From IMG/VR virus record IMGVR_UViG_3300050498_000431, positions 1 through 62,798 of that record: a stretch of 62,798 nucleotides of DNA. One strand, 5' to 3'. The notes under the pieces were generated by a model. It worked only from the letters and a program-made list of their open reading frames with translations, made no database searches and was not told where the DNA came from. Source of the stretch: a virus (Duplodnaviria; Caudoviricetes). The position numbers were made by a program, and so were the translations under genes. Shown one piece after another: positions 24,763 to 57,894 of this stretch; the first letter of the stretch is position 1, and every line of letters starts with the position of its first letter.

Positions 24763-25163
24763 GCAAAAGTTATAGCCCCATCTACAGTCAGTTCAAATTC
24801 GAGCGGCAGCGCGCCGTTGACCGGTGCGGACGGAATGCGGTACCTGGTAACAAAGGCCTGGAAGGTCCAAGTCGTCGCGCCCGTATTCGGAAAGCGAACG
24901 GTAAACGCGGTCGACGTGCGGTTAATCATGGCCGTGCGTAAAGCGACATGTTGCGCATTGGCAGGCACAAAGTTGGCCGAGACGCGGATCGTACCACCAT
25001 CGAGCAAGGTCGGAATTTTACTACTCCAATTGCCACCATCATGGGCCGAGACATCGACCACATTGAACTGTGCGCCAATCTCAGAAGCATTAGTTATTTC
25101 TGGTATGGGAGTACCAGCCATATTAATAACAATACCAGTCGCGGCAATCGCCTGAGTAGCCAA
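24759..25163 (-). CDS. major tail tube protein, paralogue 2
   Basis: DVSAHD...IPTLLDGG...F-x-AFVT...L-x-VDG lambda gpV-like pattern; TTG start. Confidence 0.8.
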   Translation of the reverse strand: MATQAIAATGIVINMAGTPIPEITNASEIGAQFNVVDVSAHDGGNWSSKIPTLLDGGTIRVSANFVPANAQHVALRTAMINRTSTAFTVRFPNTGATTWTFQAFVTRYRIPSAPVNGALPLEFELTVDGAITFA

Positions 25164-25316
25164 AACTAATCCTTTCCATACTAAGAAAATATTCTATCTT
25201 TGCCTTCGCTTCTAGGCTATACTCTTGGGTACTTGGTAGCGCCTAGCTAGCGCTCGTCAAGTCTCCGCTGCTAACCCAGTAGAGAGCCAAGTACTCTCCT
25301 CAACCTTGGTTAGAAG

Positions 25317-26108
25317 GTGTCTATGGAAACCCCTGCGTACAGAGTCTGTTCGACGTGTGACCTGAAGAAGCCTCTTGTAGAATTTTCTCTTGATAAACAT
25401 GGCAAATCTGGAAGAGCTGCTTCGTGCAAGGCTTGTAAACGTGAATATGCTGCTCGATATAAGAAAGAGAACCCAGAAAAAGTACGACAGAGCGGTAGGC
25501 AATCCTATGCGAGAAACCTTGCGAAACATCAAAGATATCGAGAAACAAACAAAGAACAGAGACGTGTAAAACGCATACAGTACTATCACAAGAACCGTGA
25601 GATACTGGTGCAAAAAGCGAAGATACGAAATAAAGCCAGTCGAGTACAAATAAACGCTCGAAGAAAGATTTATAGGGCCGAAAACTTCGAAAAAGCGATT
25701 TTGATTGAACAGGCTAGAAGCCACAACTATTACCTTCTCAATAAAGAAAAAATAAAATCTGTTGTTCTACGTTACAGAAAATTAAATCCTGAAAAAGTCC
25801 GAAACTGGAAGCACACACGACGTGCTGCTAAAAATGGGACTACGGGCAACGATTTGACGCCTGCACAATGGCGCGAGATTCAAGCCGCGCAGAAACATCG
25901 CTGCTACTATTGTGATAAACGATGTAAAGGCAGACTGACTCAGGACCATATCATTCCCATTAGCAAAGGCGGCGCTCATACATTGCATAATGTCATTGGC
26001 GCCTGTCTTTCCTGTAATACAAGCAAAAGAGCTGGGAGCCCTTCTATTCCTGTCCAGCCATTCCTCCTAACCGTAGCACCTGCAAAGAAAACACGTATGG
26101 CTCGTTAG
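25317..26108 (+). CDS. HNH homing endonuclease
   Basis: N-terminal CxxC...CxxC; C-terminal CYYC...DHIIPISKGG-x-H-x3-N-x4-C-x2-CN; antisense to the tail operon; A/T-richer than flanks. Confidence 0.9.
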   Translation: MSMETPAYRVCSTCDLKKPLVEFSLDKHGKSGRAASCKACKREYAARYKKENPEKVRQSGRQSYARNLAKHQRYRETNKEQRRVKRIQYYHKNREILVQKAKIRNKASRVQINARRKIYRAENFEKAILIEQARSHNYYLLNKEKIKSVVLRYRKLNPEKVRNWKHTRRAAKNGTTGNDLTPAQWREIQAAQKHRCYYCDKRCKGRLTQDHIIPISKGGAHTLHNVIGACLSCNTSKRAGSPSIPVQPFLLTVAPAKKTRMAR

Positions 26109-38935: not shown

Positions 38936-39157
38936 TCATGGCAGGCGCTGTTCTAACGTCCGTACCCGCTGCTCTAGGCGGTCGAGTTGCTGCTGGAGTG
39001 AGGGTGTTGGCGCGGCGGGACGTTGCAGATCGCGGAAGGTGAGGCCCAAGATGGCTCCACACATGAAGATCGTAAAGAGCAAGATGCCGACCCACAGCCG
39101 ATCCTGCATGGGGGGAATGGCGTTCAGCACGCGGCGGGGCCAGCCCTCGGGGGGCAT
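38936..39157 (-). CDS. small membrane protein with a C-terminal coiled coil
   Basis: One hydrophobic helix, then QQQLDRLEQRVRTLE; start uncertain. Confidence 0.5.
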   Translation of the reverse strand: MPPEGWPRRVLNAIPPMQDRLWVGILLFTIFMCGAILGLTFRDLQRPAAPTPSLQQQLDRLEQRVRTLEQRLP

Positions 39158-39360
39158 CAAGCTTCCTCCTCCTCCGTGCCATCCTCGCACTCCATCTGCA
39201 TCGCCCGGCGTTCGTTCGGTGTGAGCATCTCGCACAGGAAGCGCAGCCGGTCGGCGGGGGCGACTTGGCGCCAGTAGCGGTGGAGGTAGTCGAGTGGGGT
39301 GAGGGCAGGGTCCTCGACTCTACAGGGCTGCTGCGTGCGCGGAGGCTGCGATCTGGGCAT
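39157..39360 (-). CDS. hypothetical protein
   Basis: AGGAG RBS; coupled to neighbours. Confidence 0.5.
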   Translation of the reverse strand: MPRSQPPRTQQPCRVEDPALTPLDYLHRYWRQVAPADRLRFLCEMLTPNERRAMQMECEDGTEEEEA

Positions 39361-39368
39361 GGGGGCTC

Positions 39369-39644
39369 CTAGGGTGCTGTCTTACGTTGAAGACGGGCAC
39401 GAAACTCAGTAGCCCGACGAGCACGTTCCTCATCACTCAGGATTATCTGTCTTTTGGCTACAAAACGTAGAGCGTCTTCTGGAAGAAAAATCTTCATTCC
39501 GCCTTGATGTTCAATGACGCGGCCTCCGACTTTGTTCGCAAGACGTACAAATAGTCTGGTATAGTAGGGGGCAGTCGAATACACGGTAAATGTCTCTTCG
39601 TCGGCACACTTGGAAATGACGACTTCCTGCTCAGCACGTTGCAT
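39369..39644 (-). CDS. hypothetical protein
   Basis: ORF with RBS in the A/T-richer island. Confidence 0.55.
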   Translation of the reverse strand: MQRAEQEVVISKCADEETFTVYSTAPYYTRLFVRLANKVGGRVIEHQGGMKIFLPEDALRFVAKRQIILSDEERARRATEFRARLQRKTAP

Positions 39645-39689
39645 CTCTCCGCCCTCGCGATACTATGATAGATATAGACGACAATGGTT

Positions 39690-39905
39690 TCATTGGTGGT
39701 GGCTTGTTTCGAGATCTCGCGTGCCATCAAGCAGCTCGGCTATCCCTTCACGCAATATGGCTTGAAATGTCTCATTCAGGCAGTCCTCACATGCCCAATC
39801 CATCTCCAGAATCGCGTCATAGAGTTCAATATCAATCGGAATCCTCAGATAGGGGCCTTTAGCTCCCCCTATGCGAAGAATAGGGCGTAGTGTCTTTGCC
39901 ATACA
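39690..39905 (-). CDS. hypothetical protein
   Basis: GGAGG RBS before MAKTLRP. Confidence 0.45.
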   Translation of the reverse strand, partial: CMAKTLRPILRIGGAKGPYLRIPIDIELYDAILEMDWACEDCLNETFQAILREGIAELLDGTRDLETSHHQ

Positions 39906-39906
39906 T

Positions 39907-40119
39907 TCAGCCTCCAGATGGACAAAAAAAGGCCTCATCACACGTGCAATACTTGATTGTAGCTATTTGATCTAGATCGCCAAATTCAAAGCTGTCAGGA
40001 TACCCTGTTTCCTCAAAGGCATACTCGATGATATTCCGAATTTCGAGGGCTTGCAGTCCCCACATCATTCCCCCATGACATTGTGAACAGCGTATGATCC
40101 AAGCTTTTTGTGAACTCAT
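39907..40119 (-). CDS. small Cys-containing hypothetical protein
   Basis: ATGA overlap with the methyltransferase stop; CSQC...CTC...C. Confidence 0.5.
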   Translation of the reverse strand: MSSQKAWIIRCSQCHGGMMWGLQALEIRNIIEYAFEETGYPDSFEFGDLDQIATIKYCTCDEAFFCPSGG

Positions 40120-40640
40120 GGAGCATTCTCCTTTGTAGGGCGAAAGATAACAACAACACTGGGGAAAGGCGCGTTGTACCTCGCATTGCCAAATTTCAGA
40201 CGCCCTGGCACAAAACGAATCTCCCCCCGCATAGCATAGGTATGCCACCACTGCATTTCAGTTCGTGATGGCACAAGACAGACAACGGTGGCGCCCGCCG
40301 CTGCACTTTCAAATGCCTTGCGCATCCACTGCCCGAGATCGCGCCCATAGGGAGGATTACACCAGCAGATCTCAGGTGCCCAGGTTTGTATCAAGCCATT
40401 CTCGGCCTTGGTGAAATAACGGATACACTTGGCATTTTCAGGCGCGGCGGCCACATCAAGGGTAAAACGAAACTCAGCATGCAACACATCAAAGAAATCT
40501 TGCGGCGTTGCTCGCTCTTCCGTGGTAGAACGGTGGTAGACTCTTAACTGGGTCTGTTTCGCCTTGCGCTGGCGGCGCTTATTTTCTCGCCACTTCGTAT
40601 GAATATCAGCGTATAGTCTTGGATGACCCACCTTTGTCAT
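40116..40640 (-). CDS. phage DNA N6-adenine methyltransferase (Dam-like)
   Basis: TPQDFFD-x-L...F-x-LDVAA...NAKC, WCNPPYG, LVPSRT and GRLKFG motifs. Confidence 0.9.
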   Translation of the reverse strand: MTKVGHPRLYADIHTKWRENKRRQRKAKQTQLRVYHRSTTEERATPQDFFDVLHAEFRFTLDVAAAPENAKCIRYFTKAENGLIQTWAPEICWCNPPYGRDLGQWMRKAFESAAAGATVVCLVPSRTEMQWWHTYAMRGEIRFVPGRLKFGNARYNAPFPSVVVIFRPTKENAP

Positions 40641-40650
40641 GGTTTTCCTT

Positions 40651-40688
40651 ATGAATAAAGTGGACAAAAAAATGTCCACTTTATTCAT
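40651..40688. repeat. perfect 16-bp inverted repeat with a 6-nt A loop
   Basis: ATGAATAAAGTGGACA-AAAAAA-TGTCCACTTTATTCAT. Confidence 0.9.
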
Positions 40689-40712
40689 GTCTTGTCTGTA
40701 TATTGTTATGGA

Positions 40713-41192
40713 TCAAAAAGACATAAAAGACTTCACCCTGTCCCTGTCAAGCACCCAGCTCCCGACCAGTCGGCGCACGATAAGATCGTGCCAGACATGT
40801 CGCAGTATTTCATAGTGCACGTCCTGCACAAGGCTCACAAAGACTGACGACGGCGTGAGCACGGTTAGATCACACGCAAACCACTCCCCGACCACCCGGC
40901 ATGCCTGAAAATGTCGATGTACCCACCGCTCGACGGTAGCGACAGAACAGGGACAAGGGGCCTCCGCGAGAAGCGTTAAGGGCGTGCCATGCCTTCGTTC
41001 TAAGACCCTCAGCCGTCGCGGCACATTCTCTGAGCGGCCTATTTTGGTGAGCGAGGTCGTCGCCTGGTGGATGGCATAGACCGATCCTCCAGGTTCGTAT
41101 TGCCGCACGAAGTTGATAACCACGGCGACTTGACGTGGATGGAGATTTCTCACGTCGAGAATGCGGGCAGCATGTTCATAAGAACTGAGCAT
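40713..41192 (-). CDS. T5orf172 / MUG113 (GIY-YIG-like) domain protein
   Basis: VYAI...KIGRS-x-N-x2-RRL...E-x3-H-x2-F...GEWF. Confidence 0.8.
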   Translation of the reverse strand: MLSSYEHAARILDVRNLHPRQVAVVINFVRQYEPGGSVYAIHQATTSLTKIGRSENVPRRLRVLERRHGTPLTLLAEAPCPCSVATVERWVHRHFQACRVVGEWFACDLTVLTPSSVFVSLVQDVHYEILRHVWHDLIVRRLVGSWVLDRDRVKSFMSF

Positions 41193-41193
41193 G

Positions 41194-42441
41194 TTAAGCC
41201 GCCTCCTCCTCTTTCTTGAGATCGGCTGTCAACAGGGAGAGGCCCGTTTTATCATAGACATAATCTCTCAGACGATAAATACCTGCCGATCCCAGTCGAG
41301 TAACTTTGACACGCGAGCGTCCCTGATTATCCTCAATGGGCAGACCCGTTTTTTTATCCACCTCTGGCTCACCCAGACAGGCGAGCCAATCGGGGTTGAA
41401 GCGGCTCCAGTCGATAGAGGCAAGACGTTGGAGCACGCTGTCAAGCGTGGAGGGTGACGCATTCAGGCGTACATACAGATCGTGGAAAACGAGGCCCAGT
41501 ACCTGCCAACCCGGCGAGGTGACATGCAACGCATCCCGATCAGCAAAGCGGTCGCGGCCCATTTTGGTTGAGAGGGCTTCAAAATACGTCTCGATTTTTT
41601 GTGCAAGAATCGGGTAGGTCTCTAGCGTCAAGGAGGGATTCGTAGTGGTCGCGTGATTACTCACCTGGAAAGCCGCTCCTTCACATGCCCCACGCACAAA
41701 TCGTAACAAGACCTGCTGGACAACTATCGCTTTGCTGTTTTTCCCAAGGCTCGAAGCACGAACATCCATGCCGCCGTACTGCTTGAGCACTCCGCTATTA
41801 CCCAAATGATTCGTCAGGCGAATATAGAGGTCACTCTGATCCAGGGCAATGGCATGCTGCGTCGAAATGCGTTTCTGCAAATAATTAAAATCGTAAAAAA
41901 GTTGCCCGAGTTCATCGACGGACAACATCCCACTGACCGGCGCATAAAACGTAACAGGAAAAGCAAAAAGCTCCCATGGCCCTGTCTCCCCAGCCAGGCT
42001 ATTGTAATGGTCAATAAGCGTCAAGGCCGCCGTGACACGTGCGAGGCCATCAAGGAGGATGCGGGCATGGGAGCCTGCCAATTCGAGCTGCAGATACCCA
42101 ATGTTTCTCTCCTCCGCCGAGAACGGTTGAAAGGTGGCGGGCTGCATCATCCCAATACAAATAGCCGGAAAGGCTCCTATGATCGCATGGGCAGCACCAA
42201 TATGATCACTAATATATTCCATAAGAGAATCACGGCGAGCCTTGTCAGTGCTCCGCTGCACATGCTCATACCGCTCACGGAGAGGGGTAGCGAGGCTTTT
42301 CCAATGATCAGAACGGGGGTCATGCCCAAGAACAGACACGACGTCGCGCGGACGTAATTGTGTCTGAAAGCTGAGGAGTTTACTGCCAAAATACCCTTGG
42401 ATAGCGGGCACAGGAACGGTGAGTGCCTTGAGTGTTTCCAT
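41194..42441 (-). CDS. DndB / DGQHR-family (ParB-like) protein
   Basis: VQR-x2-D-x2-R, FPAI, ILLDGLARV (variant of DGQHR) and QLFYDFN motifs; GGAGG RBS. Confidence 0.75.
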   Translation of the reverse strand: METLKALTVPVPAIQGYFGSKLLSFQTQLRPRDVVSVLGHDPRSDHWKSLATPLRERYEHVQRSTDKARRDSLMEYISDHIGAAHAIIGAFPAICIGMMQPATFQPFSAEERNIGYLQLELAGSHARILLDGLARVTAALTLIDHYNSLAGETGPWELFAFPVTFYAPVSGMLSVDELGQLFYDFNYLQKRISTQHAIALDQSDLYIRLTNHLGNSGVLKQYGGMDVRASSLGKNSKAIVVQQVLLRFVRGACEGAAFQVSNHATTTNPSLTLETYPILAQKIETYFEALSTKMGRDRFADRDALHVTSPGWQVLGLVFHDLYVRLNASPSTLDSVLQRLASIDWSRFNPDWLACLGEPEVDKKTGLPIEDNQGRSRVKVTRLGSAGIYRLRDYVYDKTGLSLLTADLKKEEEAA

Positions 42442-42462
42442 AGATCCTCCGATCAATAGGCA

Positions 42463-42471
42463 TTTATACCA
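42463..42471 (-). promoter_or_regulatory. extended -10 promoter for the DndB-like operon
   Basis: TGGTATAAA about 20 nt upstream of the start codon. Confidence 0.45.
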
Positions 42472-42584
42472 TATGTGACGCCGGATCTTATGATCTTTTT
42501 TTATGTTGCGCAATTAGAAAATTGTGAAAAACAGAAAAACCTAATGATGGATGGAGCCAGAACCTGTAAGGGAAAGATTGAGCA

Positions 42585-42800
42585 ATGAACGATCCCGACG
42601 AGACCGACCTCCCCGACCATGACTACGCCTCGATCTATGGCCATGCCGCCCTGTACGCGCGGACCCTGGCCCGGCTCGATGCCCTCCTGCGCAAGATGGA
42701 CGCCCAAGCGCGCACGATGGAGGCCACCGCAACCACGTACCGCGCCTGGCTCGCCGCGCGGGAGGTCCCAGGACGCCCAGAGTCGCCAGCGACACAGTAA
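42585..42800 (+). CDS. small hypothetical protein
   Basis: Helical 71-aa ORF with GC3-rich codons upstream of the RAMP gene. Confidence 0.5.
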   Translation: MNDPDETDLPDHDYASIYGHAALYARTLARLDALLRKMDAQARTMEATATTYRAWLAAREVPGRPESPATQ

Positions 42801-42898
42801 TTGCTTGCCTCCACGCGACTGCTTGTATAGAGTGCCCCTCCGAGGTGTATAAAGTGTAGCAAGAGTAATGACTATTCCAACACGTGGAGGAGAGTCTT

Positions 42899-43612
42899 AT
42901 GCCACGCACCAAGACCGCACCAGCGCCCAGCAATGGCACCGCGTTTGTCATTCCGGCGCATCCCGGTGTCACGATTCGCCCCTTACGCGAAAGCTCCGCG
43001 ACGTTTCGCATTCACGGCCTAGCGCCGTACATGCAGTGCCGCTTTAGCCAAAAAGCTATTGCCAAAATCCAAGAAACGCACCGGCAAGGCTCCCAGGCTC
43101 GCTCCAAACGCGTCCGGGAAGCCCGCGACTTTGACGAGGATTACCGCCAAGCGATGCACCTCTTTGCTGATGGCACCTGCGGCATTCCCTGCGCCGCGTT
43201 TCGCAACGCCCTCATCAGCACCTGTCGCCTCGTGGGCTTTAAAATGACGATTGCCAAGCTCTCCGTCTTTATTGTGGCCGACGGCCTCGATATCGTCGAT
43301 GGGACCCCCCTCGTACGCATTGAAGGCACGCCGGAACAGAGCATTCTGCCGGTCCGCAATGCTACGGGCGTCATTGATTTGCGCGTCCGGCCTTTGTGGC
43401 GGGAATGGGCGGCGAACCTGACGATTCGCTACGATGAGGAACAATTCAGTACGCAAGACGTGACGAATCTCCTCATCCGGGCCGGACGCCAGGTCGGCGT
43501 GGGCGAAGGACGCCCCGATTCGCGGGATTCCAACGGGATTGAATATGGCTTGTTTCAAGTCGAGATCGAGCGCGAAGGAGACGACAATGACGACCCCGAC
43601 GACGACGCCTAA
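42899..43612 (+). CDS. stand-alone RAMP / Cas7-like RNA-binding protein
   Basis: N-terminal strand FRIHGLAPY; GIPCAAFRNAL (compare RAMP IPgss-x-kGal); C-terminal Gly-rich loop GRQVGVGEGRP...GIEYGLFQV; GGAGGAG RBS. Confidence 0.75.
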   Translation: MPRTKTAPAPSNGTAFVIPAHPGVTIRPLRESSATFRIHGLAPYMQCRFSQKAIAKIQETHRQGSQARSKRVREARDFDEDYRQAMHLFADGTCGIPCAAFRNALISTCRLVGFKMTIAKLSVFIVADGLDIVDGTPLVRIEGTPEQSILPVRNATGVIDLRVRPLWREWAANLTIRYDEEQFSTQDVTNLLIRAGRQVGVGEGRPDSRDSNGIEYGLFQVEIEREGDDNDDPDDDA

Positions 43613-44234
43613 GCCGCTGCCGATGTTTGACACGGACGAGGAAGTCGTCAAGGAATTGCTCACGTTTTATCGCCGCAACGCCCATCGCCTCAGTGGTGTG
43701 AGCGAAGCCACGACCAAACTCTGGCCGCGCCTCATCAAGCGGATGCCTCGCAAGATCCTCATCCACTTGGCCCAGCTCGGGCTGACGACCAAAGTCCGCA
43801 GCTTGAACGGGCAGGACCTCGCGCGCCAGGGGTGGACCGCCGCCCAGGGCAGTATCCTCGTCCAGCAGACGACCCCAACCGATCCCGCTCAGGCGGGCAA
43901 ACCCGTCAGAGTGCGGGTCGAGCGCCTGCCCTGGACGGGACCAACGGTGGTCTATCCCAAAATTCTCACCACGACGTTGTATTCGACGAAGACGGTTGTC
44001 AAGCCGTTGCTGCATTTCACGATTGACGATTTTACGTTCGTCATGTCCGGCTTTGCCGAACAACGCAACGGGTTAGAGCGGCGCATTGAGGCCATGGGGA
44101 GTGCGGTCCAGGCTCTCCGGGCGCATCAGGTGCGCGAAGTCGCGGACCTGCCCCCGCCGGAAATCGAGGCGTTTGCCGCCCGGTGGGAAGAGGCGCTACG
44201 CCGCGAGCGCGACCTGGCGAGCGTGGTCGCGTAG
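43587..44234 (+). CDS. hypothetical partner protein between the RAMP gene and the array
   Basis: AAGGAG RBS at 43575-43580; overlaps the RAMP 3' end; the array starts right after its stop codon. Confidence 0.7.
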   Translation: MTTPTTTPKPLPMFDTDEEVVKELLTFYRRNAHRLSGVSEATTKLWPRLIKRMPRKILIHLAQLGLTTKVRSLNGQDLARQGWTAAQGSILVQQTTPTDPAQAGKPVRVRVERLPWTGPTVVYPKILTTTLYSTKTVVKPLLHFTIDDFTFVMSGFAEQRNGLERRIEAMGSAVQALRAHQVREVADLPPPEIEAFAARWEEALRRERDLASVVA

Positions 44235-45231
44235 GGCATACAGACACGGCAAGGCCTCGTTTGGCGCGACTTGGTTGGACTAGACACGGCGTCGCAGGCA
44301 TGGCGAGACGCGACAAGACGAGACCAGGCGGAGTTCGACCGGGCGCCGCAGGCGTGGTACGGCGAGACTGGACTAGACAAGGATGGCCGAGCTAGGCAGC
44401 ACATCGCAGGCATCGCTTCGCGGGGTATGGCTGGACCGCGCATGGCAGGCGTGGCGCGACGTGACAAGGATTGGCGTCGCAGGGTTGGGCGCCGCCGGCA
44501 CGGCCCGATCACCCTAGGCGTGCCTAGGCGTGACCAGCCGTCGCTTGGCCCGCCTCCGCACCGCAGGCATGGCGAGACCCGTCAGCGCGGGACGTGACCC
44601 GGCGGGGCGTCGCAGGCCTGGCGAGACATGGCTTGACGTGGCGTGACGAGACCGGGCATCGCAGGCATCACACCGCTGCCCAGGCACCGCATGACGAGGC
44701 CAGCCGTACCACGGCGTCGCTGGCGTGGCCAGACGAGCCGCGATGTGGTCTGGCATGGCAAGGCGCTGCCCCGCGGGCGTGGCTAGCCAGCGCGTGGCGC
44801 CGGGAGGCTCGGCAGCGCTGGCGAGGCATGGCCTGGCGCGACGCGACTTGACGAGACGCGACCTGGCGCCGCAGGCTTCGCACGGACTGGCGAGGATTCG
44901 CGAGACGCGGCGTGACGAGACATGGCTTTGCAGGCATCGCGGGACGTGACGAGACGTGACGCGGTCGGACAAGGCGGGTCGAGGCGCGGACTGGCAGCGC
45001 AGGCTTCGCAAGGCATCGCAGGCGAGGCGCGACTAGGCACGGCCAGGCCAGACCGGACCCGGCGCCGCAGGCATGGCGAGGCCGGACTGGGCATGACCTG
45101 GCAAGGCGGGGCTCCGCAGGCGCGGCCCGGCGCGACCAGACACGGCAGGCATGGCGCGACGAGGTGCGTCAGGACGAGACAGGGTATGGCGAGACGCGAC
45201 TTTGCAAGTCCAGGCAGGCAAGGCATAGCAT
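44235..45231 (+). ncRNA. pentamer-periodic repeat array, segment 1 (about 20 units of (GGC/GAC-NN)n-CGCA); candidate guide-RNA array
   Basis: Example 44820-44873: GGCGA GGCAT GGCCT GGCGC GACGC GACTT GACGA GACGC GACCT GGCGC CGCA. The 5-nt period is seen directly; RNA function is inferred. Confidence 0.8.
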
Positions 45232-45257
45232 ATCAATGACTTAGCGCGACTTTTGGC

Positions 45258-45286
45258 TTGTATGGGAAGAGGAAACAGGCTATACT
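45258..45286 (+). promoter_or_regulatory. sigma70-like promoter
   Basis: TTGTAT-17 nt-TATACT, followed by a GGCAGGAGA/TCTCCTGTC hairpin. Confidence 0.65.
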
Positions 45287-45353
45287 ATCGGGGTAGGCAG
45301 GAGATGGGGTCTCCTGTCCCCCCTAAACACACGCCTCTAGTAGGAGAGACGAC

Positions 45354-45836
45354 ATGTCTGAGCAAGATCTTACCACAACTGAAGTCCTACAACGCCTCAA
45401 TGCACAACTGCGCGATGAAGTCCTGGCTTTGCATGAGCTTACCACTGACGAATTGCTTGCCATCAAGCATACCAAACCACACTTAGCCCTCCCGGCCATG
45501 TTTCTGTGGATAGAGCGCCGTGAGCAGCACAATCCCTCGCCTGCAAAGCTCAAGTCTCATTATGTGTATGTGTTACAGAATACTGCCAACCAGTATGTCA
45601 AGATCGGTTATACAGCCGATCCAGACCAACGGTTACGTCACTGGGAATGTACGACCGTCGATGAGTTGCGGCTCATTGGTGTATGGCAGGTTCCTCACTC
45701 CAAGGTTGAACGCGAACTCCAGGAACTCTTTGAGAATGTTCGTATGGGTCATAATCGGAGTGAATGGTTCGCGTTAACAGAAAGTGATATTGATATTCTT
45801 GTAGAGCTTATGCTGGACTTTGAACGCGTGCGCTAG
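45354..45836 (+). CDS. T5orf172 / MUG113 (GIY-YIG-like) endonuclease-domain protein
   Basis: YVYVL...VKIGYT-x-DP-x2-RL...E-x2-L...SEWF; AGGAG RBS. Confidence 0.82.
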   Translation: MSEQDLTTTEVLQRLNAQLRDEVLALHELTTDELLAIKHTKPHLALPAMFLWIERREQHNPSPAKLKSHYVYVLQNTANQYVKIGYTADPDQRLRHWECTTVDELRLIGVWQVPHSKVERELQELFENVRMGHNRSEWFALTESDIDILVELMLDFERVR

Positions 45837-45900
45837 CACGTAGCCTCTTCCCGGCGCCTCGACCTGATTGCCGCGTTGATTGAAGAGCGCCGCCGCCCGT

Positions 45901-45971
45901 AGCAGGCATCGCACGCCCCGGCCAGTCCTGGCGGCGCCAGACATGGCTCGGCTCGGCCCCGCAGGCATGGC
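45901..45971 (+). ncRNA. pentamer array, segment 2 (one full unit)
   Basis: AGCA GGCAT CGCAC GCCCC GGCCA GTCCT GGCGG CGCCA GACAT GGCTC GGCTC GGCCC CGCA GGCAT GGC. Confidence 0.7.
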
Positions 45972-45976
45972 CGCAA

Positions 45977-46008
45977 GGGAGGCTTGCTCAGTTTTGAGTA
46001 AACCTCCC
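45977..46008 (+). other. stem-loop after array segment 2
   Basis: GGGAGGCTTGCTCA-GTTT-TGAGTAAACCTCCC. Confidence 0.6.
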
Positions 46009-46031
46009 TGCAGCTGCACAAGGAGCGCATC

Positions 46032-46244
46032 ATGGTCACACAGTCAGGCCGCAGTGGCATGGGGAGCCATAAGCATGGGGTCTCCGGCTCGGTGCACACG
46101 CAACAGCATTTTACGGGGAAGACGGGGCCAGCGGGTTCCAGGCGCAAAGCCAAGAGTACCCGGAAGCAGCGGCGCCGCAACCGGGGCACGCATGTGAATA
46201 AGTATGCGGACGAGCGGGAGGAGCCTGCGGCCCCCGTTCCGTAA
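46032..46244 (+). CDS. small basic, probably disordered protein embedded in the array
   Basis: AAGGAG RBS; Arg/Lys/His/Gly-rich 70 aa; the array resumes right after its TAA. Confidence 0.55.
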   Translation: MVTQSGRSGMGSHKHGVSGSVHTQQHFTGKTGPAGSRRKAKSTRKQRRRNRGTHVNKYADEREEPAAPVP

Positions 46245-46247
46245 CGT

Positions 46248-46777
46248 GGCGCACGCGCGGATCGTCTAGCCGCAACACGGCGTGGCTACGCGAGGCGTGA
46301 CCCCGCTGGCATCGCAAGGCCCACCAGGGAATCGCATCGCAGGACCGGGCCTGGCGCCGCAGACATCGCACGCCCTGACGAGACGAGGCAACGCGCGACC
46401 AGGCCGGGATTGGCATCGCAGGCACGGCTCGTCGGGGCGTGACGTGACGAGGTAGCGCCCCGCCTGACACGGCTCCGCTGACACGGCTCGACAAAGCGCG
46501 GCTGCACATCGCCCCGCCGGGCACGGCGTCGCAGGCATGGCGTGCCTAGGCACCGCTTCGATCGTTCGGCAAGGCAAGGGACGGCGAGACCCCGCCGCCA
46601 TGGCTAAGCGCGGATCGGCTTGGCCCGACTCGACACCGCAGGCTTCGCAAGTCCTCGCACGTCCAGGCCGCGCATCGCAAGGCCTCGCCCCGCCAGGCCA
46701 CGCCGGCGTGGCACATCGTCGCTTGGTCCGGGGTCGCGCCGCAGCGCAGGACGCCGCACCGCAGGCACGCGGGGCGT
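46248..46777 (+). ncRNA. pentamer array, segment 3 (about 9-10 units)
   Basis: Example 46362-46420: GACAT CGCAC GCCCT GACGA GACGA GGCAA CGCGC GACCA GGCCG GGATT GGCAT CGCA. Confidence 0.75.
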
Positions 46778-46855
46778 GTGACGGGGGGCATCAGACTCCC
46801 GTGCAAAAGCGGTGAGAATCTGCTAGACTCGTGGCTACTTGTGAGTGTCTGCGTA

Positions 46856-46903: not shown

Positions 46904-47257
46904 CTAACCAGCCTCCGGGGGACACGCCGAGGGCGGTTGCTTCTCTAAACCAATCAAGCGATTATCGGCTTTGTCTATTGATCGGATAAGTTCATCGAGC
47001 TTGCGATGTAGTGCAGCCTCGTGCCTATTCTGCGTATGTTGAATGATCACGACAAATATAGAGGTCGTTAGTGTCGAAAGCGTATTAATAACAATCTGAT
47101 AGGTATCAGTAAAGCCTATAAAACATCCTCCGATAAACCATATAAGTATGATGGCGAGCGTGGCGGCAAAAGCCCAGATAGACCCCAACGCCTCTGATGA
47201 TTGTTGCGCAAAGGCTGAAAACCATTGAATTAACGTAGATATTTTACTTGTTTTCAT
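46904..47257 (-). CDS. low-affinity iron permease (Fet4-like) family membrane protein
   Basis: GS-x-WAF...GFTDTYQ-x-VINT...IQHTQNR...LH-x-KLDELI...N-x-LIGLE signature. Confidence 0.85.
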   Translation of the reverse strand: MKTSKISTLIQWFSAFAQQSSEALGSIWAFAATLAIILIWFIGGCFIGFTDTYQIVINTLSTLTTSIFVVIIQHTQNRHEAALHRKLDELIRSIDKADNRLIGLEKQPPSACPPEAG

Positions 47258-47270
47258 GTATACTTACTTC

Positions 47271-48368
47271 ATGGAATCTCAGCATATACCTGAAGAATTT
47301 ATACACTTGTTTCCGGTTACGAGTAATAGTGCTCTCGCCACGCATTTTACTATCTCCATCACCAAAGTAGGCAAATGGGCACGTGCAAGACATCTTGTGA
47401 AAGACCCCGCGTATAAACGTGCTATGCAGCGCCAGAGAGCTCTTGGGCATACGCTGAGTGAAGACGCACGTGAGAGAATCCGCCAGAAAGCGCTTGGAAG
47501 AAAAAGGCCTCAGTCTGTGATTGACAAAGCCATGGCGACAAAGCGCGCCAATGGGTCGATCCTTCGACGAGAACGACACCCTATGTGGAAGGGTGGTCGT
47601 AGCATCGCCTCCCGTCATATTAATCCAGCCTATACACAATGGCGTATGGTAGTTTTCGAGCGTGATGGCTATCGGTGCCAAGACTGTGGAAGAGAAGGTA
47701 CCGGCAAAAAACATGAAGGCGGACTGCACGCTCATCATCTGCAATCTTACTCCAAATTCCCTGCCTTGCGGTATGAAGTCTCAAATGGATTAACCTTGTG
47801 CAGTAAGTGTCATTCACAACGACACAAAATCCCTTTTACGAAAAAACCCCCGCCCGAATATATCGAATGCGCCTGTGGGTGTGGCACACGCATGACACGT
47901 CTCAATGAGCGAGGACAGCCTCGGCGCTATGTCAATCATCATGCCGAGCGCGGACGCCGCAACGGCCCTATCGAGTTGGAAAAGATCCGTCAAGCACAAC
48001 TGGGACGCAAGCATACGACAGAGCATAAAGAAAAAATCCGTCAAGCCATGCTCGGCCGTACATTTACTCCTGAACACAGGGCGAATCTCAGCAAGGCTAC
48101 GACTGGGAGAAGACTCTCCGAATCGCATATCGCCAAACTACGCGGACGCACAAAACCCCCTGAGGAACGAGCGAAAATTAGTGCATCCCAGAAAGCGCGG
48201 CTGGCCCTGCATCCTCCTAGGCCCAAAAGTGAGGAGGCCCGCAGAAAGACGAGTATTGCTTTAAAAGGAAGGACTAAAAGCCCTGAGCATCGTTCCAAGA
48301 TTAGTGCATCAAAACGCCAGAAGAATGCAGCCAAGAGAAATGCAACAAATCAACTCAGCCTTTTCTAA
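47271..48368 (+). CDS. HNH homing endonuclease with NUMOD3-type repeats
   Basis: VFERDGYRCQDC...LHAHH...NGLTLC-x2-CH; CACGCG; repeated GR-x3-E-x3-KIS; ATG 47271 lies 7 nt after TATACT (alternative start 47256). Confidence 0.9.
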   Translation: MESQHIPEEFIHLFPVTSNSALATHFTISITKVGKWARARHLVKDPAYKRAMQRQRALGHTLSEDARERIRQKALGRKRPQSVIDKAMATKRANGSILRRERHPMWKGGRSIASRHINPAYTQWRMVVFERDGYRCQDCGREGTGKKHEGGLHAHHLQSYSKFPALRYEVSNGLTLCSKCHSQRHKIPFTKKPPPEYIECACGCGTRMTRLNERGQPRRYVNHHAERGRRNGPIELEKIRQAQLGRKHTTEHKEKIRQAMLGRTFTPEHRANLSKATTGRRLSESHIAKLRGRTKPPEERAKISASQKARLALHPPRPKSEEARRKTSIALKGRTKSPEHRSKISASKRQKNAAKRNATNQLSLF

Positions 48369-50224: not shown

Positions 50225-50457
50225 GCGCCAAGCTCCTCTAGGGTCAGCGGTGTACCGGCGGCAGCCTCCAGGGGAAGAATCCAGGTCGTCAAGTCCGTCG
50301 TATCAACCGGATAGGGGCGTTCATAGTCTAGCACCACATACCGCTCCTTGATGTCGCGTCCCCACAAATAGGAGACGAGCATGGCACACTCGTCGGTCGT
50401 AAAAACGGGCACGCCCCGGCGCAGAATGACATAGCGATGTCGGGGATTCACGGTCAT
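50221..50457 (-). CDS. hypothetical protein ending in PLTLEELGA
   Basis: ATGA-coupled; last 9 aa identical to the gpF C-terminus. Confidence 0.55.
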   Translation of the reverse strand: MTVNPRHRYVILRRGVPVFTTDECAMLVSYLWGRDIKERYVVLDYERPYPVDTTDLTTWILPLEAAAGTPLTLEELGA

Positions 50458-51494
50458 GCGCCAAGTTCCTCTAACGTGAGCGGCTTGCCCGTGGCCGCGT
50501 CGATCAATTGTTTCGGCGTGAGGGTGCCGGCGCGGAACATCCGTGCCCGCGTCGGGCCAAGGACGGCATCCTGATACGCCGTATCGCGGCGAGAAAGCCA
50601 CTGACTCACCGTCTGTTGCGGGACGCGTCCGCCTCCCGGGACCACGGGGATCATTTCACTCCGGCATCCCGGATGGTAGGGCGGCCCGCCGAGATAGGGC
50701 ACCGCGTGGTCGACGGGCTCATGGTCCGGCACGGTATAGCGCAAACCATGCCGCCCTAAACAGAGGTGTGACGTGTGGCTGTCGAGGACCGAACTATGTT
50801 CAATCAGTACCTCACTAGCATTGACATCGGCGACCTTGACCCGTGCCTCACTGACCGCGTTGGTGGTCTGCGTCCGCAGCAAGCGGGCCGCGTCTTCCTT
50901 GGCCTTGGTCATAATCCCGTCCGCATAGCCATTGGCCGCCGTCCCTTGCACACGGGCGACGAGGGCCGGGAGGGGCTCCTCCAGGCTGACGCCCACCATG
51001 AGCGAATCCCCCACGCGCGTCACGAGCCCGACAGCCGCGCGGCCCCACCAGTCCTCGCCCGTGGTACTCAGGTCCGTTGGCGAGGCCGGGCTAGGGATCA
51101 ATGTCTGCCGCACGGCCCGGCGGAGCGCCGTGTCACTGGGCGTCTCCTCGATGGTTTCCGTCGCGGTGGCGGTATTGACGATCCGTCGCGTGACCATGGC
51201 TTCTTGCGCCGCTAGGGCGACCAGAAACGCGTCCACGTCGCGGGCGATCTGGACATACCGCGTCATCACGAGCGGGTCCACCTCCTCCCGTATGAGGAAG
51301 TGTACCGCCCGACGCCGCGCCACGAGAAAGGAGAACTGCGCCGGATCGGCCTCGCGGAGCGCATGCAACAGATCGCTTTCAAGAAGCGCTAAGATCCCCC
51401 ACACCTCATGGCGCTGGTGCGTCTCCGCCCGGCCCACCTGGAGCAGGCGCGCGGTAAAGGCATCGGCAATCTGCGCGTTTACAGGCTCGGCCAT
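50454..51494 (-). CDS. head morphogenesis protein (Mu gpF / SPP1 gp7-like)
   Basis: LRT-x2-TN...SVLDS-x-TS-x2-C...PPYHPGCRS...WL...Q-x2-VLG...G-x-PLTLEEL. Confidence 0.88.
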   Translation of the reverse strand: MAEPVNAQIADAFTARLLQVGRAETHQRHEVWGILALLESDLLHALREADPAQFSFLVARRRAVHFLIREEVDPLVMTRYVQIARDVDAFLVALAAQEAMVTRRIVNTATATETIEETPSDTALRRAVRQTLIPSPASPTDLSTTGEDWWGRAAVGLVTRVGDSLMVGVSLEEPLPALVARVQGTAANGYADGIMTKAKEDAARLLRTQTTNAVSEARVKVADVNASEVLIEHSSVLDSHTSHLCLGRHGLRYTVPDHEPVDHAVPYLGGPPYHPGCRSEMIPVVPGGGRVPQQTVSQWLSRRDTAYQDAVLGPTRARMFRAGTLTPKQLIDAATGKPLTLEELGA

Positions 51495-51518
51495 AGGTTG
51501 CAATCCCTTCCAGGGGAG

Positions 51519-54480: not shown

Positions 54481-56025
54481 CTAGGCTACACTACGTGCCG
54501 CGCCATTCGTCGCCCGAGGGGGAGGGCTTGGTGGCAGCGTCACGAGTGGGCGCTGCGATTGCTCGTCTTCAATCAATGCCTGCTCTTCCTCCACGGGCAC
54601 TAAGGGTCTCGCAATCTCTCCCTTTTGGAGGTTATGATAAAATGTCTCATAACTAATAGTTCCGCTAAGAAGAGCAGCCATCAGTGCCGTCAACATCTGA
54701 GGTTGCATCGTATTCGAAACTAAATCTTTATTGAGGCTGACATGCACCGTTGGGTCATCAATGTTATCTGAAAACGCAGCCCACCACGCGTGGGTTTGAA
54801 GTGCCCACGTCAGCCCCTGGCTGACGCTGCTGACCAAGGACTGCACGGGGCTATCGCTCCCGGCCATGCGCCACTGCACGCCCGTCGCGGTTTCCTGCGT
54901 CTCCGGCGGGCCTTCGAGGAGCCGGGCGCCCATCGCGGCCATCATCTGCAAGTCGGCCTTGAGCGCATTCTCGTGCGGCTGGAGGCCCTGACCGTGAAAC
55001 TCGACGATCCCCACCTTGGCCTGATTATCGGGCAGGAACAATGCCGAGCTGGCGCCCACGTAGAGCTCCGGGGGCGCCTCCATATTGGCGGCAATGTAGA
55101 ACTGCGGCATGGCCGTGAGATGCAGGGCGTGCTCATAGTCCGCGTTGTGGCGCCAGTTCAGGAAATTCCGCTGCACGAGACCTTCGAGGAGGGACTTCTC
55201 AGGGGTCGGCTCCAGGCTAAACGGCGCCATGAAGCAGAACGGCAGGAAGTCGAGCGGTTGCCCCTGGCGCGTGGGCATCCAGACCCGCTGCAACGTCGCC
55301 GCCTGCGCGTTGGTACGCTGGCCGACCGGGTCTTCGAGCCACAGACTGACCTCGTAGAGGCCCACCTCATTCAAGCGCAGCACGCGGTATTGAACCTGAT
55401 CTTTGACCACAAAGAAATCCGGCGTCCCCCACGGACCTTGCGGGACCTGGACACATTCCTTGAGCACCACCAGCGACAGGATGGTATCGCCGCCCCGCTG
55501 CATGGTGCGCCAGTTGATGATCTCTTCGGCCTGGTACGCCACCCAGTAGGGGCGACTCTGGGGCGGCGGGGGCAGCAGCTGGCCGTCGGGCGTCACGTCA
55601 CCGGCCGGAAAGTCTACCAGAATGCCAAAGCGCCCCATGAGTAAGGTTTCTCGTACCGCCTCTTCACAGAACATACGCAGCGAAATCCCCGTCTGCGTGA
55701 TATCGGCCAGTTGCGGCTCCAAGGCGGCAGGACCCACGAGTTGCGGCTCATGCCGAAACACCGAGCCCGTAATGCCATGCACGGCATGTTCGGTGGCTGC
55801 GGTCCAGCAGGCTCTATCCCTGTACGATATGTAAGCCTCATCGCGGCGCATGCCCGCTGGCCTGGGGAGGTGACGAGTGCCATCAAGGACACTGCGCCCG
55901 GCCCGCTGGGAGAGCCCCCACGGGCGGGCAGACTTCACCGCGGCCTCCCCAAGGTATGCCGCACGAAGGTCCTGATAGAGGGGCAACATGGCGGCATACG
56001 CGGGGTGTGACAGGGTGACGGACAT
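54481..56025 (-). CDS. portal protein (DUF4055 / SPP1 gp6-like)
   Basis: Follows the terminase with a TGATG overlap; Y-x2-Y-x2-RA, G-x-FGILVD, I-x-NW, MGARLL...ETAT and G-x-IS-x-ET motifs. Confidence 0.88.
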   Translation of the reverse strand: MSVTLSHPAYAAMLPLYQDLRAAYLGEAAVKSARPWGLSQRAGRSVLDGTRHLPRPAGMRRDEAYISYRDRACWTAATEHAVHGITGSVFRHEPQLVGPAALEPQLADITQTGISLRMFCEEAVRETLLMGRFGILVDFPAGDVTPDGQLLPPPPQSRPYWVAYQAEEIINWRTMQRGGDTILSLVVLKECVQVPQGPWGTPDFFVVKDQVQYRVLRLNEVGLYEVSLWLEDPVGQRTNAQAATLQRVWMPTRQGQPLDFLPFCFMAPFSLEPTPEKSLLEGLVQRNFLNWRHNADYEHALHLTAMPQFYIAANMEAPPELYVGASSALFLPDNQAKVGIVEFHGQGLQPHENALKADLQMMAAMGARLLEGPPETQETATGVQWRMAGSDSPVQSLVSSVSQGLTWALQTHAWWAAFSDNIDDPTVHVSLNKDLVSNTMQPQMLTALMAALLSGTISYETFYHNLQKGEIARPLVPVEEEQALIEDEQSQRPLVTLPPSPPPRATNGAARSVA

Positions 56026-57482
56026 CAGATATGCATCTCCATCGTAAAGCTTTTGGGCTTCGTCGCCGCAAAGGTACATCCTAACGCGTCGGCAAGATCA
56101 CACGAATGCCCAAGACGCTTGCGGATATGGTCTTTATCTTCCACGACCAATTGTCCCTGGCTATCGAACCCATAGCCCACACTCGCCAACTCACCCGCGA
56201 GGTCCTCGCACGCGGTCGCATCCGGTGCACAAAACACTGGCTGAGCCGTGCGTAGCCACTCCGCCACTTCCAGCCAGAGATAATCGCGGAGAAGCCGCGG
56301 CTTCGCCTCCGCAGGATGCCGTACGAGGGGGGCCTTCTCCGCCACATTCACCGCCGTAATGCCGACACGGATCACGCCCTGACGTTTTAACTCTGCGAGA
56401 CGATCATAGACCCCTGCACCCAACCCAATGACATCAATCGCCACTTCCTCCACCTGCCAAGGCTCCAAGACCGCGAGAATACAACCCACAGTCGCCATGG
56501 TATCCTGACGTGCATAGACCTTGATCTGGTCAATGAGGCTCCCATGCCGCAAGACAAGTGCTGTGCGATCTGAGCCCAGGCGCGCCACATCCACGCCCAA
56601 CCGCCGCACCCCACCAGGCTCGCGTCGTTCACGAGTCAGGCACGGCTCGGTCAACTCCAGGGAAATAAGGACGTCATCGGCCTGGCGCGGAAATTCGCCA
56701 TCAGCCCGCACGCGGACGACGTTCGAGCCTTCGCCCCACTTCGCCACGAGGCGCGGGCGGTAGGCGGCATCCACGAGCGGCGAATCCTGCGAGCGAAAGT
56801 GGAGCGTGGTATAGCTGCCCCGGTCCTTATGATGGGAGGCGTAGAAGGTGCCATTGGTGCGGGTCGGGTTGCCCAGCATGAGGACGCGGGCCTCGGGCGT
56901 CGAGAGTGCCCCTTCCGCCGCCTCGAAGACTTCTTCGGGCATGCCACTCGCTTCATCGAGGACGAAGAGCAGATGCGTGGCATGAAAGCCCTGGAGGGCC
57001 TCGGGATTCTCCTTGCGGGCCGTCCGAGCAAAGGCGCCCCATTCTTTGGCACTGGGGTCCACCAAGCTATCCGTGAGGAGCTTAAACAAGCGCGAGATCC
57101 AGAAGCGCGGCGGGTCGCCCCGGGCCGCACTGAGGGCATCGGCATGCCGCCGCCACTTGCTGAGCTCGCCCCACAAGATGTCGCGGAGCTGGTGCGAGGA
57201 GGGCGCCGAACAGGGGACTTTGGCGTAGTCGTGGGTTTCGAGCATCCAACTCACCGCCCAGGCGGCGCTCGAACTTTTGCCGATCCCGTGGCCCGACCGC
57301 ACCGAGACTTTCGCACCGGGGGGGAGGATGGCGTCGAGAATCTGCGACTGCTGCGGTGTAGGCTCCATCCCAAAGCGTTGCTGGACATAGAGGACGGGGT
57401 TATCGCGCCAGCGGTCGCGCAGTTCGAGATACTGCTCGAAGGCCGAGGTAGGCTCCGCGACGTCAGCGAGGAGTGTCGCCAT
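56025..57482 (-). CDS. terL: terminase large subunit
   Basis: Walker A VRSGHGIGKS, Walker B FVLDEASG, GNPT, nuclease motifs LGVDVAR and DLADAL. Confidence 0.95.
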   Translation of the reverse strand: MATLLADVAEPTSAFEQYLELRDRWRDNPVLYVQQRFGMEPTPQQSQILDAILPPGAKVSVRSGHGIGKSSSAAWAVSWMLETHDYAKVPCSAPSSHQLRDILWGELSKWRRHADALSAARGDPPRFWISRLFKLLTDSLVDPSAKEWGAFARTARKENPEALQGFHATHLLFVLDEASGMPEEVFEAAEGALSTPEARVLMLGNPTRTNGTFYASHHKDRGSYTTLHFRSQDSPLVDAAYRPRLVAKWGEGSNVVRVRADGEFPRQADDVLISLELTEPCLTRERREPGGVRRLGVDVARLGSDRTALVLRHGSLIDQIKVYARQDTMATVGCILAVLEPWQVEEVAIDVIGLGAGVYDRLAELKRQGVIRVGITAVNVAEKAPLVRHPAEAKPRLLRDYLWLEVAEWLRTAQPVFCAPDATACEDLAGELASVGYGFDSQGQLVVEDKDHIRKRLGHSCDLADALGCTFAATKPKSFTMEMHI

Positions 57483-57894
57483 GCGAGGCCTTTCGCGCTT
57501 GAGCCAGGAGGCTGGCCAGCCCGTCACTCAGTTCCACATCGAGACGTTGCTTCGCGGGAGCCAGCTCGGGATCGATGCGTTCGAGAACTTGGAGCGCCAG
57601 CATCCCATTGCCTTCTTTAATCGTGCCCAGGAGGGCCGCACGGGAGGCGTGGGTCAGATCGATCAGCCAGCGCTTACGAGCTTCTTCGAGCGCCCAGGCC
57701 CATTGGTCTTTGAGAGATTCCCATCCTGAAATGGTCCGCAAGGACCGCCCCACTGCGCGAGCTGCGTCAGCCTGCGTGGCCCCCATCATGCGGAGATAGG
57801 CGGCAAGAACACACTTTTCCCAATAGGGGGGGGCAGGAGGATGCGCACGCTGCCCATACGCAACTTTAGGAGGTGGCCGGTGGGCAAGCGCCAT
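57463..57894 (-). CDS. terS: terminase small subunit (putative)
   Basis: HTH motif (TQADAARAVGRSLRTISGW), LER motif, overlap with terL. Confidence 0.75.
   Translation of the reverse strand: MALAHRPPPKVAYGQRAHPPAPPYWEKCVLAAYLRMMGATQADAARAVGRSLRTISGWESLKDQWAWALEEARKRWLIDLTHASRAALLGTIKEGNGMLALQVLERIDPELAPAKQRLDVELSDGLASLLAQARKASHGDTPR

Follow-up and report, generated by a model that had tools for sequence, protein, structure and literature searches.

VIPR (Viral Interference Programmable Repeat) is a CRISPR-like form of gene silencing that was first described in 2026 (10.64898/2026.04.26.720920, 10.64898/2026.04.26.720927, and 10.64898/2026.10.15.759431). As set out in the first of these preprints, Vipr is a phage-encoded RAMP of about 20 kDa, and its guide RNAs (vrRNAs) consist of 9 to 16 pentamers of the form YNNGG, whose two variable bases (NN) base-pair with double-stranded DNA and leave out one target base in every unit, mostly the codon wobble base; the targets are competing phages, prophages, and satellites (10.64898/2026.04.26.720920). 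The structural account of the SUSP1 system describes one protomer per pentamer, with H17 and D177 reading G1, R138 and a stacking contact with W178 reading G2, and a pocket with R179 holding Y3 (10.64898/2026.04.26.720927). The third preprint deals with satellite-based VIPR biology and with a target-calling method similar to the one used here (10.64898/2026.10.15.759431). Here, we analyze the viral contig IMGVR_UViG_3300050498_000431 (hereafter the window, meaning all 62,798 bases of it), in which arrays of pentamers follow a gene for a Vipr homologue. We conclude that these arrays are very probably the guide-RNA part of a phage-borne VIPR locus, of a tail-less, staggered kind.

Seven types of VIPR are distinguished, and the array kinds named in the preprint include "staggered arrays with overlapping vrRNAs"; the legend of its Fig. 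S18 speaks of "staggered vrRNA arrays ... 1 nt overlapping positions," and by its account small RNA sequencing confirmed just the ribozyme-interspersed and the single-vrRNA kinds (10.64898/2026.04.26.720920). The published pentamer search used YNNGG in at least four units, with the variants NNNGG, YNNNG, and NNNNG (10.64898/2026.04.26.720920). Accessory genes, vap1 to vap6, are described as typical beside vipr but not universal. The discovery is months old, and RNA guides that read DNA by a gapped code are proposed to be older than CRISPR.

The putative locus in the window runs along one strand, from vipr (42899-43612) through a second gene (43584-44234) to about 1.6 kb of arrays. We assigned it to VIPR because a Vipr homologue and pentamer arrays occur together, while the 62,798 bases hold no regular CRISPR repeat-spacer array and the open reading frames (ORFs) scanned, 53 against PHROGs and 32 against Pfam, include no other cas family.

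Anatomy of the pentamer arrays

Identity between bases five positions apart reached 0.37 to 0.47 in six 300-nt segments (44101-45300 and 46201-46800), compared with 0.25 to 0.28 at other lags, and no other segment of the window gave such a signal. The pattern (GRCNN)x8 occurred nine times in the window and in none of 100 dinucleotide-preserving shuffles, and every one of the 25 exact runs of at least five pentamers found genome-wide fell in the array region, 23 on the plus strand and 2 on the minus strand. Read on the plus strand, the five-base step is made up of two variable bases and a triplet, GGC, GAC, or CGC. A dynamic-programming parse delivered 24 runs of 7 to 14 pentamers, the first of which begins 2 nt past the stop codon of the second gene and on the same strand; the triplet and NN counts reported below refer to the 246 pentamers in runs of at least seven.

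The original prediction, which was made from the letters and a list of ORFs, had taken 44243 to 46763 as a single stretch in which "constant" triplets alternate with variable dinucleotides that may spell gapped targets. The dinucleotide strings that it quoted at 44820, 45148, and 46362 are present there with the correct letters, and the five-base rhythm is real. The stretch is not one array, however, being split by a T5orf172 gene and by about 285 non-periodic bases (45967-46251), and the triplets are not constant: GGC accounted for 87 of the 246, GAC for 59, and CGC for 49, and the remaining 51 were none of these.

The arrays fall into three blocks, all on the plus strand. Block 1 (44236-45235) contains staggered vrRNA-like units of NN plus GGC, GAC, or CGC pentamers, with 15 GCAGGC delimiters. 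Block 2 (45903-45966) is one unit with the end CGC-AGGC, after which comes a small hairpin with a T-rich tail (45973-45987), and block 3 (46252-46766), beyond the non-periodic bases, holds more degenerate units, including the one at 46358-46423 that is considered below. The register is broken by four-base steps, mostly AGGC after GC, each of which is a pentamer with a single N instead of two (N-GGC). In all, the arrays hold 21 GCAGGC delimiters; the lengths between them are 5k + 4 bases, and the units contain about 9 to 13 triplets. Well-formed intervals, 39 to 74 nt long, make up 10 of the 18, and the other eight measure 19, 29, 58, 107, 113, 118, 123, and 210 nt.

Within the units, the choice of triplet depends on position. 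In the 24 well-formed units available from the window (10 of 18) and from L080 (14 of 22), a close relative described below, the first pentamer carried GGC in 15 and CGC in 9, the second carried GAC in 12, the penultimate triplet was GGC in 19, and the last was CGC in 19. An information logo at the delimiters placed the signal on the triplet positions and found it near zero on NN. A guide cut from these arrays would be offset from its neighbor by a four-base step and would typically begin with GGC or CGC, carry GAC or GGC inside, and end with GGC-NN-CGC.

Folded as RNA, six units showed no stability beyond that of shuffled sequences (z -0.85 to +1.60), which is what guide tracts without structure should give. 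A search of Rfam at E ≤ 1 yielded two matches only, of 21 and 16 bits, far below gathering scores, and no ribozyme, and scans for promoters and terminators gave no excess over shuffles.

A period of 15 nt could in principle stand for five residues of a repetitive protein, and ORFs of 85 to 165 amino acids do lie on both strands of the region. The four-base steps, however, would shift the frame about every 50 nt, and the period is 5 nt, not 3, with lag-3 identity at 0.22 to 0.28. Moreover, a caller based on codon-position G+C picked just 46546-46806 and 45833-46189, both on the minus strand, the former within block 3 and the latter overlapping block 2, and nothing in block 1, and the arrays of relatives sit between genes. 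The probability that the region is coding is therefore close to nil.

Regularly spaced triplets are known from the sites of TRAP, a ring protein that binds 11 (G/U)AG triplets with 2- to 3-nt spacers in a leader. We rejected a TRAP-type site as a candidate, the triplets here being GGC, GAC, and CGC, variable in number per unit, with 19 to 210 nt between delimiters. No match to the TRAP family was found among the ORFs scanned against PHROGs (53) and Pfam (32).

The Vipr homologue, its relatives, and their arrays

The vipr gene (42899-43612, plus strand) lies upstream of the arrays on the same strand and encodes a 237-amino-acid, Cas7-like RAMP, predicted to be the RNA-binding subunit, that falls in phrog_4652, a family of unknown function. 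From an alignment of 31 homologues (A1), which left out the product of L078, with a stop codon in the matched range, and short C-terminal matches, we obtained an AlphaFold2 (AF2) model with a predicted local distance difference test score (pLDDT) of 84.7. Foldseek against the PDB returned 63 matches to this model at E ≤ 0.001, headed by Csm3, Cmr4/6, and type VII Cas7 (best E 3e-5). VIA-align superposed model residues 29-225 on Csm3 (9g9f_D) with Z 11.5 and a root mean square deviation of 3.4 over 150 residues, and its top 50 entries, with Z from 11.5 to 9.4, were all Cas7-type RAMPs. The protein is also homologous to the solved Vipr of SUSP1: in the PDB, the A1 profile picked out the entry named "SUSP1 Vipr protein" (36pp_D), with E 5e-14 and with positions 11-183 of its 197 aligned, ahead of the next matches at E 0.84, and hhalign of A1 against the phiSUSP1 coding sequence gave a probability of 98.6.

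When the window Vipr was compared with deposited phages by tblastn, 150 records were matched. In phiSUSP1 the match (28483-28659) lies inside a coding sequence of 195 amino acids, after which comes one of 146 amino acids; long intergenic regions are present, and the upstream one bears an (NNGGT)n tract, in agreement with the preprint. The homologue of Cyanophage Cy-LDV1 is 56% identical and those of mycobacteriophages about 35%; the matches include BK059895.1 31490-32092. The 150 records include 77 from Escherichia, 27 from Mycobacterium, and 5 from Gordonia phages. In many deposited phages the homologue is annotated as "hypothetical protein," as is gene 49 of the mycobacteriophage Donkeykong.

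The G-loop, which reads GVGDWRP in SUSP1, reads GVGEGRP in the window, with Glu in place of Asp and Gly in place of Trp (W178), and its Arg is invariant in 31 of 31 A1 sequences. We compared loop and scaffold across the 90 loci whose loop could be read and for which 12 or more pentamers were counted, the first 120 loci having been picked with the GRC pattern. GAC- or GTC-rich arrays were present at 5 of 63 loci with a Gly-type loop (the window, L080, L089, L039, and L242) and at 0 of 27 with W, F, Y, or H. A tie between the Gly and a GAC or GTC scaffold is suggested by these counts, which comprise too few loci for significance. In L039 and L242 the scaffold triplet is GTC (42 of 44 and 265 of 279, respectively), the array of L039 lying downstream of vipr, and in L089 it is GAC or GAT.

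Between vipr and the arrays lies the second gene, ORF B (43584, or 43623, to 44234, plus strand), a candidate vap by position only. Three homologues, with 81 to 100% identity, were found among 5.8 billion proteins. No Pfam, PHROGs, or NCBIfam family matched it, the atlas gave no usable match, the PDB profile search returned nothing below E 0.39, and its AF2 model was unusable (pLDDT 37.1).

The vipr family and the arrays are associated in both directions. Viral contigs scanned with the bare pattern (GRCNN)x8 gave at least 120 stretches, many of which bear long (NNGGC)n arrays, in genomes with a G+C content of 27 to 76%; a tblastn homologue of the ORF at 42884-43612 was present, among the matches listed, in 49 of the 120. 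For the reverse test, 64 loci in GTDB genomes were fetched by peptide patterns of Vipr, from genomes and metagenome-assembled genomes (MAGs) assigned to many phyla, the closest Vipr being 64% identical. A same-strand run of at least six pentamers was found within 2 kb of vipr in 50 of the 63 loci with at least 500 nt of flank, and downstream of it in 46 of the 62 whose downstream flank reached 500 nt or more, whereas only 12 runs lay farther off in the 656,592 bases of these loci.

Arrays of the same build occur in more distant relatives. At L112, L093, and L040 (Vipr 52-55% identical in A1) and at L078 (53%, by tblastn) an array directly follows vipr and is composed of AGGC-delimited units of 39 to 69 nt; the scaffold there is nearly always GGC, and it is in the window and L080 that triplet use is position-dependent. 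A different arrangement was seen at L061 (7831-8493), where an invariant tail of about 37 nt comes after every NNGAC tract (21 to 24 units), with a terminator at the end.

The closest comparison is with L080, whose Vipr is 97% identical to that of the window. Synteny between the two extends from vipr to the head genes, with 78 to 94% nucleotide identity, yet their arrays diverge from their very start and are unalignable beyond periodicity. A single unit is kept between them (46358-46423 in the window), with 54 of 55 letters identical, and identity collapses outside its two four-base steps. Contigs from rhizosphere metagenomes hold both the window form and an L080-like form; the latter departs from the window exactly at 44235, and its differences in vipr are spaced by multiples of three. 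With the genes conserved and the arrays divergent, the units behave as exchangeable modules beside a conserved gene. Two features by which VIPR loci are recognized are present, namely, tandem pentamers beside vipr and, between the window and L080, a conserved scaffold with hypervariable NN; GAC and CGC triplets do not appear among the pentamer variants quoted above from the preprint.

These comparisons also bear on whether the array is in decay, with a protein that may be intact and with much of the array, especially block 3 and the long irregular intervals, devoid of working guides. Eight of 18 intervals fall outside the well-formed class, about a fifth of the triplets (51 of 246) are none of GGC, GAC, and CGC, and the array is split by the inserted T5orf172 cassette and a gene remnant. 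On the other hand, vipr is intact and differs from that of its co-occurring relative at three-base spacing, ten units of the array are still well formed, and one unit has been kept by both the window and L080. We consider decay of this sort improbable and retain the reading of the arrays as VIPR guides.

Composition of the variable bases and search for targets

In the first variable position, G was counted 84 times, A 64, C 60, and T 38, and in the second, T 83 times, C 69, A 58, and G 36. The 16 NN frequencies correlated with those of codon positions 1-2 in 51 genes of this phage (Pearson 0.69). The log-likelihood of the NN was -672.0 under codon positions 1-2 in sense, -744.9 and -748.7 under the other two codon phases, -697.6 to -763.2 under the reverse-complement phases, -691.1 under genome dinucleotides, and -682.1 under a uniform model. 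The comparison with codon positions 1-2 that had been proposed in the original prediction thus came out in its favor: the composition is not neutral, and the sense phase fits best among the phases, the genome, and the uniform model. When marginalized over strand and starting phase, a one-base skip scored -682.5, and skips of 0, 2, and 3 bases scored -695.6, -696.3, and -695.6, respectively; the marginalized one-base model is no better than uniform, and larger skips in the same series (4, 7, ...) would agree with the NN just as well. A purine-rich first base was likewise found when 3,622 pentamers of 106 other loci were counted. Overall, the NN composition favors a gapped, codon-phased guide.

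A guide that pairs two bases, skips the wobble base, and so defeats synonymous escape had been proposed for these arrays from raw sequence; this is the mechanism demonstrated experimentally for VIPR systems (10.64898/2026.04.26.720920 and 10.64898/2026.04.26.720927), and the membership of the locus in that family supports the proposal.

The same composition speaks to the reverse assignment, in which the triplets are the recognized part, the NN are mere spacers, and the RNA serves as a scaffold, or as a sponge, for an RNA-binding protein made of several subunits, in the manner of TRAP. Such an arrangement would account for three constant and two variable bases and for units of about 9 to 13 triplets. 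Spacers, however, would drift to background, whereas the NN follow codon positions 1-2, and the adjacent gene encodes a relative of Vipr, whose target was shown in the published work to be specified by NN. We give this reading very little credence.

A rule other than the published one for the guides, with another skip length or an RNA target, might be expected from a scaffold and a G-loop that differ from those of SUSP1. In its favor, W178 of SUSP1 aligns with Gly (GVGDWRP versus GVGEGRP), and no target was found under the one-base rule. Yet the NN are homogeneous and fit codon positions 1-2, which calls for a target step of 3, and the one-base model (-682.5) stands above the roughly -696 of skips 0, 2, and 3. 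A divergent rule is, in our judgment, highly improbable.

The original prediction had asked for one gap size with more matches than shuffled controls, and no such excess was seen in local searches. Using the 24 runs against the window and the 120 loci (2.27 million positions), the best NN identity at a one-base skip was 0.795, compared with 0.789 for shuffles and 0.778 to 0.798 for other skips. For 302 guides from 107 sources, the mismatch distributions were alike for skips of 0 to 3 and for shuffles. When 25 well-formed units were run against 4.5 million positions, shuffled guides also reached NN identities of 0.8 to 0.9, so an 80% threshold is not discriminating at this guide length.

Exact one-base-skip scans of viral contigs were performed with six patterns, four of which returned nothing and two of which returned one match each. 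The first match, in L121, comprises 19 letters on the sense strand, with the skip on the wobble base, at codon 6 of the ORF after the tape-measure gene; tblastx at E 1e-5 did not match L121 to the window. The second, in L122, comprises 20 letters antisense in the portal gene, with the skip on codon position 1, and L122 shows weak, scattered tblastx matches to the window (best 37 bits). We judged both to be at chance level, for which a rough estimate is 0.1 to 0.5 matches per pattern. Patterns of 22 letters found no match in metagenome contigs or genome contigs.

With the 19-letter pattern of the shared unit, metagenome contigs yielded 67 matches, or 68 rows with L121. For 63 of the 68, the frame of the pattern is open over at least 100 codons, and 54 read MTLEEKA, which we take to be a motif of glycoside hydrolase family 3. 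The dominance of this one peptide means that an NNx pattern acts as a peptide-motif search, so in-frame phase alone proves little. In six high-GC contigs (L129, L140, L144, L180, L181, and L182), all 11 NN of the shared unit were matched (22 of 22 letters, three more than the 19 searched), in frame and with the skip on the wobble base, in a bacterial gene for an extracellular solute-binding protein (SBP_bac_6/8). By our own reckoning, chance would give about 0.15 such families, and we treat this match as a lead only.

These observations can be combined in a more specific proposal, which we regard as possible but doubtful, that the scaffold triplet is itself informative, its middle base being free (GGC, GAC, or GTC) and position-coded, and that the target of the shared guide may be a cellular gene for a solute-binding protein and not a phage. 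The loss of the G-loop Trp to Gly would, in this relaxed-scaffold reading, be what frees the middle base. If true, the register and the ends of guides that have neither tail nor ribozyme would be written in the scaffold.

By homology with the SUSP1 system, the arrays would be transcribed and cut into units, and one Vipr protomer would bind each pentamer, burying its scaffold triplet, so that a filament forms. The two variable bases of each pentamer would then pair with double-stranded DNA, every third target base being skipped, and the expected outcome is silencing of the genes of competing mobile elements or, possibly, of host genes. For this locus the scheme is carried over from the preprints on the strength of protein homology and NN composition.

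Several results weigh against assigning the locus to VIPR. The collection scans and local searches gave no natural target of the guides of this phage above chance. Neither Rfam nor RNA folding found a conserved structured 3' tail or a ribozyme, and family searches recognized no DNA-binding or nuclease domain in ORF B. With 8 of the 18 inter-delimiter intervals irregular, part of the array may be decayed. Finally, the published GGY scaffold is present in just 96 of 246 pentamers (87 GGC and 9 GGT) beside 59 GAC and 49 CGC; since G1 and G2 are read specifically in SUSP1, the corresponding pockets would have to differ here.

Surrounding genome and comparison with known systems

Inside the array region and with its own leader lies a T5orf172/MUG113 (GIY-YIG-like) gene (45354-45836, plus strand; Pfam T5orf172 E 4.7e-13). 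It is followed by the remnant of an AntA-type gene (45852-45902, plus strand), consisting of the last 16 codons (RRLDLIAALIEERRRP) and the stop. In L080 the slot of the T5orf172 gene is held by an AntA+HTH_36 gene; the leader and the first seven codons are common to both, and blastn aligned L080 4492-4611 with 45851-45971 of the window at 78.7% identity. The shared leader and first codons, together with the AntA-type 3' remnant, indicate that a cassette was swapped within the array region, 45380-45851 of the window corresponding to 3796-4492 of L080.

The window is the whole 62,798-base contig of an uncultivated, siphovirus-like phage from the rhizosphere. Its minus strand carries the genes for the terminase (56025-57527), the portal (54481-56079), a head morphogenesis protein (50454-51503), the tape measure (20188-23565), and a J-like tail protein (13473-18758), as well as the connectors, and the accessory region with the VIPR locus lies between two parts of the head module. 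No near relative was found by megablast against 50,697 deposited phages, the best match of the portal, to a Dinoroseobacter phage, is 34% identical, and no tRNA genes were found in the window.

Right upstream of vipr, a block at 38938-42803 is absent from L080, in which positions 1040 and 1045 correspond to 38937 and 42804 of the window. The block contains genes for a Dam methyltransferase (40116-40688), a second T5orf172 protein (40713-41192), and a DndB-like protein (41194-42513). Right after the last array block comes the gene for a 117-amino-acid membrane protein of the Iron_permease family (46904-47257, minus strand; Pfam E 1.4e-28), placed in the PHROG class "moron," with an HNH/NUMOD3 homing-endonuclease gene (47256-48368) next to it. 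At the end of the tail module, a 620-amino-acid protein (1182-3044, minus strand) combines a CelD_N domain with a complete domain of glycoside hydrolase family 9 (E 3.5e-55), and a 1569-amino-acid beta-helix protein adjoins it. The gene for a 1258-amino-acid tail protein (27650-31426, minus strand) has a G+C content of 70 to 73% and coding repeats spaced 63 and 132 nt, and a nearby low-G+C stretch of 1.3 kb (24763-26104; 0.438 in 25001-26000) has one 59-amino-acid ORF called.

As an example of VIPR, the window is a clear one, and its array, with 21 delimiters in about 1.6 kb, is among the largest of the loci compared here. A Vipr clade that is represented in genomes and MAGs of many assigned bacterial phyla has the tail-less, staggered architecture in common. 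Departures from the GGY scaffold are possible, which matters for the way in which Vipr recognizes its RNA and means that arrays of this kind will escape vrRNA finders that rely on GG[C/T]NN. The gapped code could moreover be deduced from raw sequence alone, as the original prediction did. The VIPR kind is known; the variant scaffold is what merits specialist attention.

The nearest described system is that of SUSP1 (type II, Escherichia phage), which, like the window, combines a small phage-borne RAMP with pentamer arrays beside its gene and on the same strand. The two differ in several respects: the window lacks a long invariant 3' tail or pseudoknot, its units abutting by a four-base step; its scaffold is GGC, GAC, or CGC with position preferences in place of GGY; the G-loop Trp that stacks on G2 is Gly; and the protein has 237 rather than 195 amino acids, with 21 GCAGGC delimiters as against 4 vrRNAs. 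With published VIPR loci in general the window shares NN resembling codon positions 1-2 and the absence of cas genes and of a CRISPR array, whereas its second gene is unrelated to anything known. Judged by the wording of the Fig. S18 legend, the staggered vrRNA arrays are the closest match in architecture, with no spacers or ribozymes, a one-base offset, and the end of one unit marking the start of the next; the 5k + 4 nt units of the window, L112, L093, L078, and L040 agree with that wording. In class 1 CRISPR-Cas systems, the Cas7/Csm3/Cmr4 filament is built from the same protein fold as the window Vipr (Z 11.5 to Csm3) and likewise sets one protomer on each fixed step of guide RNA with bases flipped periodically; the step, however, is 6 nt with five pairing bases in class 1 CRISPR-Cas and 5 nt with two in VIPR.

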